Source: Patescibacteria group bacterium (GTDB lineage: Bacteria; Patescibacteriota; Gracilibacteria; JAHISY01). From it: DNA of 64,000 bases. The notes beneath the pieces are model-generated. The model was not told the origin of the DNA, did no database searches, and worked only from the letters and a program-made list of their open reading frames with translations. The position numbers and the translations under genes were made by a program. Where the stretch lies: contig JBDRMN010000058.1 of the NCBI GenBank assembly GCA_043812055.1, positions 184 to 64,183 on the forward strand, written 5' to 3'. The number at the start of each line of letters is the position of its first letter. Positions within the stretch are counted from its first letter, which is position 1. Shown one piece after another: positions 1,644 to 51,613 of this stretch.

Positions 1644-3275
1644 CTACATTTTCTTCGGCGCCCCCACCCCCACCAAATCTTCCAACACTATTCGCAAAAC
1701 TTCTTTGGTAACAGCAGTCAGCCGCAAACGGGCGGCAGTCAATTTTTCGTTATTATTATCAATCACCCGACAGTTTTCATAAAATTTATGGAAGAGTTCA
1801 GCGAGTTCGCGCGCGTAAGTCGTGAGCGTATGAATCGCGTAGCTTTCCGAAATTTCTGCCACCAAATCCGGCAGCTCGCTCATCTTTTTGATGAGATCCA
1901 GCTCCTCCGGTTTTTCGATTAATTTGAGATCACTTTTTTTGTAATCAATTTTGCCGGCCTTCGCGAGAATTGAAGCGAGCCGGGTGTGAGCATACTGCAC
2001 GTAGTAAACCGGATTATCATTGCTCTGTTTCTTCGCTAGCTCCAGATCAAAATTCAGATGCGTATTCCAATCACGCATTACAAAAAACCAGCGCGCCGCA
2101 TCAGCTCCAACTTCATCAATCAGATCGTCCATCAGCTCGAAATCCCCCGCCCGCTTACTCATCCGCACTTCTTTGCCTTCGCGAAAGAGTTTGACGAGCT
2201 GGGTAATGATTACCTCCACTTCCCCGAAACCCAGCATTTTCACCCCCGCCTTGAGCCGCGAAATGTAGCCGTGGTGATCCGCCCCCCAGATGTCGATCAG
2301 CTTCGTGAAACCCCGTTCGAATTTATCCTTGTGATACATCAGATCCGGCAAGAGGTAGGTTGCGGTCCCATCACTTTTTACAATCACCCGATCTTTATCA
2401 TCGCCATCTGCACTCGTCTTGAGAAAAAGCGCGCCGTCTTTCTTGTAAGTCAGTTTTTTCTTTTTGAGAAAATCCAAAGTCGCCTCAATCCCCCCGCCTT
2501 CCCGCAAGGTACTCTCGTGAAACCACTCGTCAAACTTGATTTCCATTTTTTTGACCGAGGGTTTGATTTCCTCTTCTAAGAGAATGTCCGCAAAGGCCTT
2601 TCCTGTTTCTCTCGCATCATCCGAAATCTTGTCAGCGTACTTCTTCGCCAGCTTATCTATATATTCCCCCTGATAAAATTCTTCCCCGTCACGTCGTTCG
2701 TGAACGACGTGGCCTGCGGCAGCCTGAATACTCGTTCCTAAAATCTCAACCTGCTTACCAGAGTCATTCAGATAAAACTCCCGCGCCACATCATAACCGG
2801 CTCGCGTAAGCACCCTCGCTAACACATCTCCCCCAAACCCGCCTCGCCCATTTGCAATCGTGAGCGGCCCTGTGGGATTGGCAGAAATAAACTCAAGTAA
2901 AACCTTCTCTTTTCCCTGTCCTGAGCGAGTCCGCCGCGGCGGACGAGTCGAAGTGGCGAACTTTTTGCCCTGCTTCTCAATCTCCGCGAGCACAGCTTGG
3001 AAAATTTCTGGTTTCAGAAAGATATTGATAAAGCCCGGACCGGCAATTTCGGCCTTTTTTATAAACTGCTGGTCGAGCTTCCCGACTATTTCCTCGGCCA
3101 GCTCCCGCGGGTTTTTCTTGAGCTTTTTTGCTAAAATGAGCGCTGCGTTACAGGCAAGATCGCCAAACTTTTTTTCGGGTGGCGTTTCGAGCGTGAAATC
3201 ACACTTTTCAGGATTGCCTTGAGTGTCACAAGGGAGGGCAGCCTGGACGATCTTGGTAACTCGTGCGATTAGCAT
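1644..3275 (-). CDS. argS: Arginyl-tRNA synthetase
   Basis: 543 aa. Shows SANPTGPL at the HIGH region, ADHHGY, RMSKRAGD at the KMSK position, and C-terminal YVQYAHTR (DALR anticodon-binding) signatures. Confidence 0.9.
   Translation of the reverse strand: MLIARVTKIVQAALPCDTQGNPEKCDFTLETPPEKKFGDLACNAALILAKKLKKNPRELAEEIVGKLDQQFIKKAEIAGPGFINIFLKPEIFQAVLAEIEKQGKKFATSTRPPRRTRSGQGKEKVLLEFISANPTGPLTIANGRGGFGGDVLARVLTRAGYDVAREFYLNDSGKQVEILGTSIQAAAGHVVHERRDGEEFYQGEYIDKLAKKYADKISDDARETGKAFADILLEEEIKPSVKKMEIKFDEWFHESTLREGGGIEATLDFLKKKKLTYKKDGALFLKTSADGDDKDRVIVKSDGTATYLLPDLMYHKDKFERGFTKLIDIWGADHHGYISRLKAGVKMLGFGEVEVIITQLVKLFREGKEVRMSKRAGDFELMDDLIDEVGADAARWFFVMRDWNTHLNFDLELAKKQSNDNPVYYVQYAHTRLASILAKAGKIDYKKSDLKLIEKPEELDLIKKMSELPDLVAEISESYAIHTLTTYARELAELFHKFYENCRVIDNNNEKLTAARLRLTAVTKEVLRIVLEDLVGVGAPKKM
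2915..2958. repeat. GC-rich palindromic unit inside the argS coding sequence
   Basis: CCTGTCCTGAGCGAGTCCGCCGCGGCGGACGAGTCGAAGTGGCG. The core GTCCGCCG/CGGCGGAC is a perfect 16-nt palindrome. It encodes ...TSTRPPRRTRSGQGK... on the minus strand. Confidence 0.7.
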
Positions 3276-24130: not shown

Positions 24131-24644
24131 TGTCATCCCGGCCGATCCCGAGCCTGTCGAGGGAGAGAGCCGGGACCCAGACAAAATTTCCGCGCAAGCG
24201 GAAATCCAAACAATCAACCCTCGTAAAACTTAAAATACAAATCCTTCCATTCGGGGTTATTCTTTTCTATTAATTCTAGTTTCCACTTTCGCCTCCACTT
24301 CTTAATTTGTTTCTCTCGGGCAATTGCCTCAACTATATCTCCGTGTTCTTCGTAATAAACAAGCTTATTTATCTTATATTTCTTCGCAAATTTACTACCC
24401 TTTCCTTCCCTGTGTTCTCGAACTCTCAAGCCTGGATCATTGGTAACACCAATGTAAAGGGTGCCATTCTTCCTGCTCGCCAAGATATAGACGTAATAGA
24501 TTTTTTCTGTCCACATAGCTGGTAATTCTAAATGTATTAACTAAAACTCAAAAACTTACATGAACTAAAGTTCATGTTTCTGGACCCCTGCTTTCGCAGG
24601 GGATAATCTGGTTTCCCGCTTTCGCGGGAATGACAATGTTTTTA
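24131..24644. mobile_element. Candidate GIY-YIG cassette copy 2 (gene inverted relative to copy 1)
   Basis: Left units at 24131-24182 and 24186-24210. Right units at 24580-24602 and 24608-24635. 24613-24644 is identical to 1575-1606. Confidence 0.55.
24214..24516 (-). CDS. Small GIY-YIG (URI-domain) nuclease, second copy
   Basis: MWTEKIYYVYILASRKNGTLYIGVTNDPGLRVREH...; 84/100 identical to the protein at 1234-1536. Confidence 0.85.
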   Translation of the reverse strand: MWTEKIYYVYILASRKNGTLYIGVTNDPGLRVREHREGKGSKFAKKYKINKLVYYEEHGDIVEAIAREKQIKKWRRKWKLELIEKNNPEWKDLYFKFYEG

Positions 24645-48434: not shown

Positions 48435-48563
48435 GCCGGAGCGCACTTGTAGTGCGCTTCGTAACGTTTAATGATCAGCTAACGGGTGATATGCGGAACT
48501 TAGTTGGACAATCTACAAGATTGCCCGGAAACGTTACGAAACGGAGCGTAGCTCCGTTCCGGC
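48435..48563. other. Nested palindrome cluster (candidate structured RNA or REP-like DNA element)
   Basis: Outer pairing GCCGGA/TCCGGC. Hairpin GCGCACT-TGT-AGTGCGC. 12-bp long-range stem TTCGTAACGTTT/AAACGTTACGAA. Hairpins CAATCT-ACA-AGATTG and ACGGAGC-GTA-GCTCCGT. Confidence 0.45.
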
Positions 48564-49919: not shown

Positions 49920-51506
49920 TTACCATCCCTCCTCAAAAAGTTCTTCGGCGGTTTCGACCAGACTCTTTTTCGCCAGTGCCGGACTGCTGGCTGCCGGATC
50001 CGGTGCACTTGATTTTAGTCCGATTTCTGCTCGTTCGACGTCTACCTGGACCGACGTTCCCAATAGTTCTGAAAAAATCTCAGCCAGCCCCGCTCGGGCT
50101 TCTTTACTTTCGAGCTTACCCATCAAAAAATCCGAACCAACCCCTAGCACCACTTTGTCATCTTCGGTACGCAAAACGATACACTCTTTCAAAGCTAGTT
50201 TGATCGCCGACTTCTTGACCTTGGTAATCACCTCAGGCAACGCCGCCTTGGCCGCCTCCAGGCTCAGCCCTTTGGGGGCTTTAACTTCTTTAGCTGGCTG
50301 CGTTTTTGATTTAGCAGGGCTCTTCTTTTCTGAGGTCTCACTCTTTTTACTAGCACCCTTGTCCGCCGTAGTTTCGCCTTGCGGAGCGGAGGCGGATGAA
50401 ACCTGCTTGCCCTGAGCTTGCCGAAGGGTTCCCTGCTTGCCCGCCGAAGCCTTGGCGAAGGCGGGGAACCTGGAACCTGTCACGTCGCTCGCGAGCGACG
50501 TGACCTGAATTACAGCCATCTCCAGCGGCAACTGTGGAATAATCGCATTCTTCAGTTCCTCCCCTGTCCGAGTAAAAACCTCGACAATGGTGAGAACTTC
50601 TTTGGCTTCCGCCAGGCAGTTTTCAGCCACCTTCTCGAGCATGATCTCTCGCAAACGCATCAGGAGATTTTTATTGAATTGAATCAGATTTACCCCCTCG
50701 GCGACCAAACCGTTGATCGTCTCGAGAGCTTCGGGAAGTTTCTGAAAGAGCAGGGCAAAGACAAAATCCTCCACCGCCTGTGGACGGGTCAGCCCGAGAT
50801 TTTGGGCAACTGCCGCTGTGTTAATTTCTCCGGTCTGCCCGAACTGTTCGAGCATCCCCACAGCATCCCGCATGCCTCCGGCCGACTGCTTAGCAATTAG
50901 CTCCAAAGCTTCGGGCTCAGCCTTGATCCCCTCTTTTTCCGCAATCTCCGCCAGGTGTTTGGTGATCTTGGCATTCTCAATCCGGTGAAAATCAAAACGC
51001 TGGGTGCGAGAGAGAACCGTCTCGGGAACTTTGTGAGGTTCGGTGGTAGCAAGGATAAAGTAAGCGTGTCCCGGTGGTTCTTCCAGAGTTTTCAGCAAAG
51101 CGTTGAAGGCTTCCTTGGTCAGCATGTGCGCTTCATCAATCACGTAAACTTTGACCCGCGCCCGCGAAGGGGTGAATTGAATCTTTTCTTTAAGCTCGCG
51201 AATTTCATCGATACCCCGATTGCTCGCTGCATCGATTTCGATCAAATCAACTAAGCGACCATTCAGGGCGTCCACGCAAATCTCACACTCGTTGCAAGGC
51301 TCACCATCCTCGTCTGGATTGAGACAGTTGAGCGAACGGGCGATTATCCGAGCCAGGGAAGTCTTGCCTGTTCCGCGGGTTCCCGCGAAGAGGTAAGCAT
51401 GCGTGAGCCCCTTGTTTTTGAGAGCATTACGAAAAGTCTGTTTGACATGATCTTGCCCTACAATTTCGGCTAATTTCTGCGGTCGGTATTTGCGGTAGAA
51501 ACTCAA
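49920..51506 (-). CDS. dnaX: DNA polymerase III gamma/tau subunit
   Basis: YRPQKLAEIVGQDHV, GTRGTGKTS, a Zn module CxxC...CNECEIC, and VIDEAHML. TTG start. Confidence 0.92.
   Translation of the reverse strand: MSFYRKYRPQKLAEIVGQDHVKQTFRNALKNKGLTHAYLFAGTRGTGKTSLARIIARSLNCLNPDEDGEPCNECEICVDALNGRLVDLIEIDAASNRGIDEIRELKEKIQFTPSRARVKVYVIDEAHMLTKEAFNALLKTLEEPPGHAYFILATTEPHKVPETVLSRTQRFDFHRIENAKITKHLAEIAEKEGIKAEPEALELIAKQSAGGMRDAVGMLEQFGQTGEINTAAVAQNLGLTRPQAVEDFVFALLFQKLPEALETINGLVAEGVNLIQFNKNLLMRLREIMLEKVAENCLAEAKEVLTIVEVFTRTGEELKNAIIPQLPLEMAVIQVTSLASDVTGSRFPAFAKASAGKQGTLRQAQGKQVSSASAPQGETTADKGASKKSETSEKKSPAKSKTQPAKEVKAPKGLSLEAAKAALPEVITKVKKSAIKLALKECIVLRTEDDKVVLGVGSDFLMGKLESKEARAGLAEIFSELLGTSVQVDVERAEIGLKSSAPDPAASSPALAKKSLVETAEELFEEGW
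50358..50504. repeat. Cluster of four GC hairpin units in frame within dnaX
   Basis: Units at 50358-50400 and 50406-50433, a near-palindrome at 50433-50473 (CCCGCCGAAGCCTTGGCGAAGGCGGG) and a perfect 26-nt palindrome at 50479-50504 (GTCACGTCGCTCG/CGAGCGACGTGAC). Confidence 0.85.
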
Positions 51507-51613
51507 ATTAGTAGAAGTTGGAAATTAGAGATTGGAAGAACCTGCGACCCAGACTGGGATTTTATCTTGTGGGAGCTAACGAGTAAACTGGCTCGGTACT
51601 TAATTTCGAAAAA

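Follow-up and report, generated by a model that had tools for sequence, protein, structure and literature searches.

Can an essential gene take up a short palindromic repeat, keep its reading frame open and still yield a folding protein, and by what steps would such a repeat be assembled there? The question is raised by argS, the arginyl-tRNA synthetase (ArgRS) gene in a 64-kb stretch of DNA (hereafter the window) from the metagenome assembly of a Patescibacteria group bacterium (genome G000; 996,996 bp in 80 contigs, 48.6% GC), which the names of its homologues and relatives suggest to be Peribacteria-like and of the class Gracilibacteria. A first-pass annotation of the window had noted a perfect 16-nt palindrome within this minus-strand gene and had read the surrounding segment as an in-frame copy of a dispersed repeat. 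We located the palindrome in frame (Table 1), and the evidence assembled below makes it highly probable that the argS insert is a nested, in-frame and tolerated copy of a repeat dispersed through the genome. Awareness of selfish DNA in essential genes dates from the Rickettsia palindromic elements (RPE), and to our knowledge few cases have been described.

An insertion in the ArgRS interdomain linker

The argS product carries the Pfam domains Arg_tRNA_synt_N, tRNA-synt_1d and DALR/DALR_1 and shares 64–76% identity with the ArgRS of same-family genomes. On the plus strand, window positions 2915–2958 read CCTGTCCTGAGCGAGTCCGCCGCGGCGGACGAGTCGAAGTGGCG; in the frame of argS the element would be translated as ...KKF-ATSTRPPRRTRSGQG-KEKVLLEFISANPTGPL, with ATSTRPPRRTRSGQG at residues ~107–121 (predicted peptide across the insert, TSTRPPRRTRSGQGK), so that the encoded stretch lies directly before the conserved KEKVLLEFISANPTGPL block, as had been proposed. 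The palindrome itself is read as RPPRRT, and the other frames would give VRRGGL or SAAAD. That ArgRS proteins normally have a short linker at this place was borne out by an alignment of 118 homologues: between the anchors ...IEK and ...EFISANP, exactly 30 residues are present in 108 of them, compared with 38 here, and no distant bacterium among the 118 carries a homologous segment of the same length. Codon-level DNA alignment, the comparison with orthologues that the first-pass annotation had recommended, showed the extra codons to be absent from all six same-family argS genes that span the site (L002–L007). The segment is thus an insertion relative to orthologues, but one smaller than the ~14 residues first suggested: the net gain is 8 residues, since some of the ancestral linker of 10 residues is overlapped or replaced by the element.

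An AlphaFold 2 (AF2) model of ArgRS, built from a 48-sequence alignment with a mean predicted local distance difference test (pLDDT) score of 92.7, places residues 106–123 in a coil (mean pLDDT of 54 over residues 111–120) between a helix of the N-terminal domain (89–105) and the first strand of the catalytic fold (124–132). The position of this low-scoring coil between two domains identifies the extra residues as an interdomain loop, and the model predicts that the insert forms a disordered surface loop at a position compatible with folding.

An assembly artefact, in which two argS halves were joined through the repeated palindrome, or a variant confined to a rare strain, would produce the same reading. 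The source is an 80-contig metagenome-assembled genome with a multi-copy palindrome, and in the same-family genome G011 argS is split over two contigs whose overlapping ends lie exactly at the linker, which could reflect strain heterogeneity there. However, both flanks of the insert are collinear, in-frame argS that matches orthologues to the residue, and three assemblies made independently from other samples show repeat arms of the same type at this site; the linkers of G001 and G011 are plain, and we consider an artefact very improbable. Contig breaks were also tried as a sign of inserts and set aside: argS of G001 and of G011 breaks near the linker, yet neither linker holds an insert, and the G011 ends simply overlap.

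Table 1 Features of argS and of the repeat elements within it, in window positions
Feature	Position	Strand	Description
argS, arginyl-tRNA synthetase, host gene	1644..3275	minus	intact open reading frame, 543 aa
Whole composite repeat, TGTCCTGAGCGA-palindrome-GAGTCGAAGTGG	2917..2956	plus, antisense to argS	40 nt
Outer type-2 unit, left arm TGTCCTGAGCGA	2917..2928	plus	pairs in the alignment with TTGCCCTGAT / CCGCCCTGAG / TTGCCTTGAG, left arms of the palindrome-less argS-site units in P0004, P0012 and P0013
Perfect 16-nt palindrome GTCCGCCGCGGCGGAC, with CCGCGG inside	2929..2944		sequence
Nested module, 18 nt (6 codons), GTCCGCCGCGGCGGAC+GA	2929..2946	plus	exact ends ambiguous
Outer type-2 unit, right arm GAGTCGAAGTGG	2945..2956	plus	pairs with GTCGAAGGGTT / ATCGAAGGGTT / GTCGAAAGGTT, right arms at the argS site of P0004, P0012 and P0013
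Possible second, degenerate type-2-like unit TTGCCTTGAGTGTCACAAGG	3214..3233	plus	5-bp stem, overlaps the CDTQGNP codons

A further seven extra codons lie near the N-terminus of argS (3210–3230, residues 16–22, CDTQGNP) and were found in none of 29 other ArgRS compared, nor in the L002–L007 DNA. They use another frame of the TTGCCTTGAGTGTCACAAGG unit, which is single-copy in the genome and folds as DNA at -3.6 kcal/mol (z -2.0); its membership of the type-2 family described below is possible, judged by resemblance. Elsewhere in argS (window 2850–2861, residues ~139–142) the class I HIGH signature reads TIAN (PTGPLTIANGRGG). The majority consensus at this site is TLGN in the 118 homologues, so TIAN looks clade-wide and not like a defect of this argS; the nearest solved structure, 3FNR, has HIGH.

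A modular repeat family with nested units

The exact 16-mer GTCCGCCGCGGCGGAC occurs 11 times in the genome, compared with an expectation of ~0.0005 for a random 16-mer (our own arithmetic), with 14 copies at no more than one mismatch and 23 at no more than two, and a reversed 16-mer control gave no match in any of the 61 genomes searched. It is these genome-wide exact copies that carry the significance of the palindrome, not window-only statistics: within the 64 kb there is one match, and with three mismatches allowed a match arises in 22 of 100 shuffles. The copy counts also refute an origin outside any repeat family, in which local slippage expanded the linker and chance or quasi-palindrome correction created the palindrome. 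Linker sequence does vary among relatives, and CGAGT direct repeats flank the core of the element, but 11 identical 16-mers, intergenic copies with similar flanks and a 34-nt composite found letter for letter in other phyla leave slippage with practically no probability.

The eleven palindrome copies have related flanks, from which two frame types emerge, and the argS segment proved to be one more copy of this dispersed repeat. Type 1, CTTGYCC(G/T)CC-GTA-G(inner hairpin)C-GAA-GG(C/A)GGR, has 38 copies in a strict scan; its outer stems covary (by eye), and its inner hairpins are interchangeable, being GCCTTGGC, GCTCGAAGAGC, GCCCGGAGGGC or the 16-nt palindrome. Type 2, YTG(C/T)CCTGAG-(3–6 nt)-CGAAGGG, is represented by ~24 CCTGAG...CGAAGG copies, with or without the palindrome (for example window 50411–50428 and C27:2401-2433), in agreement with the TGTCC...CGAAG(T)GG frame that the first-pass annotation had recognised in intergenic hairpin units. 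The argS element is a type-2 frame (TGTCCTGAG ... CGAAGTGG) holding the palindrome, and C27:2401-2433 is built alike.

Taking 18 nt (GTCCGCCGCGGCGGACGA) out of the argS element gives CCTGAG-CGAGT-CGAAG, which has a 5-nt loop and is a normal type-2 unit; the element observed is such a unit plus 18 nt. The exact ends of the 18-nt module are ambiguous because 5-nt direct repeats, CGAGT at 2926–2930 and 2944–2948, flank it, enclosing a 13-nt core. Other palindrome copies, when 18 nt are likewise removed, appear to leave small hairpins with GTAA or GAAA loops. Nesting is seen elsewhere in the genome as well: at C35:1038-1055 the loop of a hairpin is occupied by a type-2 unit, whereas the hairpin at window 48440–48458 is its empty counterpart. 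Given the removal result and the palindrome-less units of relatives, the simplest history is a type-2 unit first and the 18-nt module later, and this is the order of the two insertion steps that we infer. As a side observation, the empty hairpin belongs to a 129-nt element with 35-nt inverted ends (window 48435–48563), which is the empty form, resembling a MITE (a miniature transposable element with inverted repeats), of a full cassette at G000 C35:1000-1760, where a gene like those of REP-associated tyrosine transposases (RAYT; C35:1106-1654) lies between the shared ends.

Genes other than argS host such units too. In-frame type-2 units were found in seven more Pfam-confirmed genes, namely argC, nusA, purC, an M24 peptidase gene, tsaD, dgt (encoding a dGTPase-like HD protein) and dnaX. 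Nine of ten candidate in-frame units lie antisense to the open frame (7/8 among Pfam-confirmed hosts), and six of the ten encode a peptide like (N/D/C)PS(T/A)xSGQ. Since the sense strand of the unit has TGA in one frame and encodes bulkier residues, this antisense bias is explicable by selection for stop-free, flexible peptides. By a crude gene map, 8 of 38 type-1 and ~8 of 24 type-2 units (~21–33%) are inside genes, compared with 84% coding, a depletion expected under purifying selection if most insertions into genes are lethal. Two loci were noted in passing. The dnaX linker (gene at window 49923–51524) holds several in-frame hairpin units, at 50411–50428 and 50479–50504, one of them type-2 and another GTCACGTCGCTCGCGAGCGACGTGAC, a perfect palindrome of 26 nt. 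At G000 C17:31134-31260 rsmI has a duplicated 5' end. First comes an orphan start (MLYVVATPI), then a type-1 unit with the palindrome, and the real rsmI start, MALYVVATPIGN..., lies ~45 nt downstream of the palindrome; the locus looks as though an insertion close to the start of rsmI had been repaired by duplicating the 5' end of the gene.

On these grounds we propose that the argS element would have formed in two steps. A 24-nt CCTGAG...CGAAGG unit would first have entered the 10-residue linker joining the N-terminal tRNA-binding and catalytic domains, and an 18-nt palindromic module (GTCCGCCGCGGCGGAC plus GA) would then have entered the loop of the resident unit. The gene stays open because both pieces are multiples of three and stop-free in this orientation; both encode residues that would be small, polar or basic. 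In an essential gene only permissive insertions would be expected to last, and here the net 8 extra residues would form a disordered surface loop. Units of 18 and 24 nt that can enter essential genes and stack would provide a stepwise route to surface loops in streamlined genomes of the Candidate Phyla Radiation (CPR). Such inserts also inflate alignments and can yield spurious 'hypothetical proteins' in annotation.

Recurrence at the argS linker and distribution beyond the genome

Apart from the argS element studied here (listed as P0001), long linkers were found in ArgRS of close relatives only: P0004 (+6), P0012 and P0013 (+8) and P0007 (+4), whose argS DNA was taken from independent assemblies. 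At the argS site, P0004, P0012 and P0013 carry 24-nt type-2 units without the palindrome (TTGCCCTGATCTTGTCGAAGGGTT, CCGCCCTGAGCCTATCGAAGGGTT and TTGCCTTGAGCCCGTCGAAAGGTT), with strand and frame identical to those here, and comparison of P0013 with its sister P0019 (L006) gives a clean 24-nt difference. The boundaries of the inserts differ, P0004 and P0001 being without 2–4 ancestral codons kept by P0012 and P0013, and P0007 (L035:7883-9580, from another metagenome) has at the same linker an in-frame array of GGATCGT repeated three times, read as SWIVDRGS. Differing boundaries and the heptamer array speak more for a permissive site under selective filtering than for strict target specificity, and the survival of permissive insertions alone would explain why one linker accepted repeats repeatedly. 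The element ends in TTGCC, which has microhomology with GGCAA of the conserved Gly-Lys codons; GGCAA direct repeats, a candidate target-site duplication, also flank the P0013 unit with a 2-nt misfit. A compensatory pair (CCCT/AGGG versus CCTT/AAGG) distinguishes the short stem of the P0012 unit from that of P0013, so the symmetry is kept even within the gene.

A maximum-likelihood tree of 32 ArgRS scatters the four carriers among insert-less sisters in two well-supported clades, a pattern that takes either three or four gains or a single gain with no fewer than six exact losses (our own count). The second of these histories, a single ancient type-2 insertion in the family ancestor followed by many precise losses through hairpin- or direct-repeat-mediated deletion, competes with the recurrent use of the site and not with the origin of the insert as a repeat. 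It would account for the likeness of site, strand and frame in P0001, P0004, P0012 and P0013; the divergence of the P0012 and P0013 units (7/24 nt) looks, on a rough impression, to be of host-gene order, and the GGCAA...GGCAA repeats around the P0013 unit could promote deletion. Its cost is the at least six exact losses among ~27 close relatives, to which the missing ancestral codons of P0004 and P0001 add a difficulty, and an unrelated array at the same place in P0007 suggests that the site is simply permissive. We regard one insertion with many losses as possible rather than probable. On the permissive-site reading, the ArgRS interdomain linker, otherwise fixed in length, has taken up repeats several times in one family and thus represents a natural permissive site.

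Outside G000, the exact 16-mer was present in 8 of 60 other genomes, comprising 5 of 11 same-family genomes (1–3 copies each) and a small number of more distant genomes. More than 119 stretches of a species-representative genome collection contain the 19-mer AGTCCGCCGCGGCGGACGA; among the matches listed, most were from Acidobacteriota, with Bacteroidota, Planctomycetota, Elusimicrobia and Patescibacteria also represented, and ten IMG/VR viral contigs carry it too. Cross-phylum palindrome copies are likewise nested in frames (for example TGTCATCC-TGA(palindrome)GAA-GGATC), and several Acidobacteriota genomes hold the palindrome in exactly the argS composite, whose 34-nt core, CCTGAGCGAGTCCGCCGCGGCGGACGAGTCGAAG, is identical at L068, L079, L148 and L161 (other genomes, two Acidobacteriota among them). 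Letter-perfect identity over 34 nt between a CPR genome and two Acidobacteriota genomes calls for a very broad mobile agent or a conserved recognising protein. The initial description is therefore refined in three respects: the insert is nested, its site is recurrent in related lineages, and the repeat is cross-phylum and not lineage-specific.

A second in-frame case was found in the same family. In G007 the palindrome lies in near-identical flanks, TCTGAGCGA-palindrome-GAGTCGAAGGG, in frame within an RluA-like pseudouridine synthase gene, with the peptide YPSTRPPRRTRSEQ (…GDDLYPSTRPPRRTRSEQ…), and the G000 orthologue is without the insert. As a separate observation, the more distant same-class genome G033 carries the palindrome in frame (read VRRGGQ) with other flanks in an 871-aa open reading frame (ORF) on contig C18 (L178), taken as aminoacyl-tRNA synthetase-like from its DRWIVSEL motif.

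Recurrence in a second RNA-binding enzyme raises the possibility that the insert is a co-opted loop, in which the Arg/Pro-rich RPPRRTR (five arginines), placed between Add1, the domain that binds tRNA, and the catalytic core, would serve as an adaptive basic patch aiding tRNA binding or another interaction. The frame used, which gives RPPRRT and not VRRGGL or SAAAD, is consistent with this, as are the recurrence of the PSTRPPRRTRS frame in the G007 synthase and the position of the loop next to the N-terminal tRNA-recognition domain. The compensatory pair of P0012 and P0013 argues that the unit persists, though it points to conservation of something besides the peptide. On the other hand, most close relatives have no insert, the loop is predicted to be disordered, and other hosts use other frames and peptides, as in the VRRGGQ of the G033 ORF; two same-frame cases are too small a sample, and the repeat DNA is mostly intergenic. 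We judge adaptive co-option improbable, and continue with a tolerated repeat copy.

Related repeat families and candidate mobilisers

Among known systems RPE appear closest: the argS element is functionally the same phenomenon in a much shorter, modular and nested form. RPE (Ogata et al. 2000) are described in the cited passages as ~105–150 bp long, grouped in defined families with a conserved peptide and confined to Rickettsia (PMC10969869, PMC3184786). As in those accounts, the repeats here are dispersed and palindromic, are intergenic as well as in frame in unrelated housekeeping genes, and add a peptide at folding-compatible positions where orthologues have no insert (PMC10969869, PMC3184786). 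The argS element shares the traits by which RPE-type insertions are recognised, being multi-copy and in frame in an open gene, absent from orthologues and situated at a position predicted to be compatible with folding. It is set apart by its size and build, with units of 18–45 nt, several frames per unit and letter-identical copies across phyla. Coxiella QMITE, BOX, ERIC and RUP elements, given in the cited passages as 100–400 bp, many with terminal inverted repeats and target-site duplications (PMC10969869, PMC3184786), resemble the present units as small non-autonomous repeats that, in these accounts, are sometimes fused in frame with host ORFs; the units here are far below MITE size (50–500 bp). 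A literature search with the sequence strings of the element returned, among the matches listed, only unrelated papers and chance matches.

Repetitive extragenic palindromic (REP) sequences carry a GTAG/GTGG tetranucleotide 5' of an imperfect palindrome and are normally species-specific, not shared between phyla. The present repeats resemble the REP/RAYT system in being short, GC-rich imperfect palindromes in many copies in a genome that also has a RAYT gene, and type-1 units have a GTAG-plus-hairpin head, CCGTA-G(hairpin)C-GAAGG. They differ in that the argS copy reads GAGCGA-palindrome with no GTAG head, that the element is intragenic (as are about a quarter of related units), that RAYT is flanked by another hairpin and that no inverted doublets were seen here. 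The genome encodes one RAYT that passes the NCBIfam model (NF047646; C33:14042-14491, 115.5 bits), several RAYT-like Y1 genes that score more weakly, and a TnpA of the IS200 type, which has hairpins of its own. RAYT was rejected as the mobiliser, since the flanks inspected of these RAYT and RAYT-like genes hold other hairpins, or in one case a type-2 unit upstream, with no consistent link.

A second candidate is offered by the Ssn GIY-YIG single-strand nucleases, whose genes are flanked by NTS/SRM hairpins that also occur as solo copies, according to the cited passages (Chenal et al. 2025, PMC11893778). Nine small GIY-YIG genes are encoded in G000. One of them (C76:2327-2569; PF01541, E 5e-17; in NCBIfam only a sub-threshold group-I-intron-endonuclease match) is flanked on both sides, at C76:2300 and C76:2612, by GGCCGGGTA-palindrome-GA(A/G)GGACT and followed by tRNA-Phe, and its G002 orthologue (75% identity) has the palindrome upstream in a similar arrangement. 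Palindrome copies within 150 nt of a GIY-YIG gene number 3 of 11, compared with ~0.06 expected (our own arithmetic). Hairpins on both sides of a small GIY-YIG gene, solo copies and a nearly identical motif in distant phyla are features shared with the Ssn system as presented there (PMC11893778). The differences are that the palindrome falls outside the SRM pattern, that it has 11 copies here and not hundreds, and that in-frame insertion into genes is not described for NTS/SRM in the cited passages (PMC11893778).

Scanning the genome with the SRM pattern, HGTCWYN(0-2)YYVSBRHN(0-5)WNVSBRGN(0-2)RNCYNB, gave 16 matches versus 3–9 in shuffles, the clear ones being NTS-like TGTCATYCCCGCGAAAGCGGGRA hairpins. 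In the window, NTS-like hairpins (TGTCATTCCCGCGAAAGCGGGAA...) frame its two GIY-YIG genes, at 1083–1124, 1545–1598, 24186–24205 and 24599–24636; some of them fit the SRM pattern, and the TCCCGCGTACGCGGGA hairpin is also a type-1 inner module (for example C6:5192).

Just upstream of several intact tRNA genes, incomplete tRNA 5' halves were observed that carry the palindrome, apparently in place of the 16-nt D-arm. Such loci are G000 C76:2230-2760, G002:C2 (L169), G001:C34 (L166), G001:C48 (L167), G011:C65 (L175), G011:C45 (L174) and G008:C33 (L171); an example is the pseudo-half GGCCGGGTA-palindrome-GAAGGACT beside the real tRNA-Phe GGCCGGGTAGCTCAGTGGTAGAGCGAAGGACT. Of ten same-family copies, seven have a tRNA gene no more than 200 nt downstream (Phe three times, Ala, Met and His), the D-arm replacement in the Met and His cases being read by eye, and pseudo-half and tRNA are separated by a small GIY-YIG gene in G000 and G002. 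Four further GIY-YIG loci of G000 were inspected (C14:11400-12000, C7:4300-5000, C20:12900-13700 and C41:14000-14800). Here GIY-YIG genes stand directly upstream of tRNA-Met, tRNA-Met and tRNA-Ser. Before them come 5' portions of pseudo-tRNAs that have taken up other hairpins, either following GTAG or within the anticodon stem. A G000 GIY-YIG gene also lies within 23S rRNA domain V sequence.

How, then, might the module have reached argS? Most likely, a nick or break would have led to copying from another genomic copy with the same frame, between repeats able to form hairpins, by template switching or ectopic gene conversion; such copying would explain how modules are swapped with no transposase involved. 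As initiating enzyme, the strongest candidate would be the small GIY-YIG (Ssn-like) single-strand nuclease whose gene is palindrome-flanked on both sides, and we advance this GIY-YIG-driven route tentatively, as possible but doubtful. A broader proposal holds that the palindromic module is the cognate hairpin of small GIY-YIG (Ssn-like) cassettes that target tRNA genes. Nuclease-triggered repair would copy the module into the loops of resident hairpins with a similar frame, including units in essential genes, and spread would cross phyla, with phages as possible carriers; the CCGTA-G..C-GAAGG family would descend from tRNA-Phe 5' halves. We consider this proposal rather unlikely; if it were true, essential proteins would gain loops by stepwise nested insertion of modules that are multiples of three.

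Several results weigh against a nested, tolerated repeat copy that arrived in this manner. A GIY-YIG gene was found near the palindrome in 0 of 80 cross-phylum loci, a weak test, as in any genome few copies would be expected beside the gene. The published SRM pattern misses the argS element, none of its 16 genomic matches overlapping it, and the flanks of the C33 RAYT gene are GAACGCACGTAAGCAAACGTGCG hairpins and not the palindrome. The 45-nt argS element folds as DNA at -7.3 kcal/mol (z ~0), the 24-nt units at -1 to -2 kcal/mol, no better than shuffles, and as RNA the argS element (z +1.05) is not more stable than shuffles; only two forms fold better than shuffles, the N-terminal unit (z -2.0) and type 1 holding the palindrome (z -1.8). 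With fold stability unremarkable, 'hairpin' therefore refers here to sequence symmetry and not to an established structure. The ArgRS tree settles neither the order of the two steps nor the choice between independent gains and one gain with precise losses, and the letter-perfect 34-nt identity between phyla is accounted for by no demonstrated step.

Two further observations remain. Across the whole window, Rfam at gathering thresholds reported one tRNA and no RNA family over the argS element. In-frame matches to Y1_Tnp (PF01797), the IS200/RAYT domain, occur in an IleRS-like ORF of 1273 aa (C33:9335-13153) and in a LeuRS-like ORF (C68:2-2137), with E values of 2.4e-13 and 1.3e-8, so that a transposase-like domain may be embedded in two more aminoacyl-tRNA synthetases.

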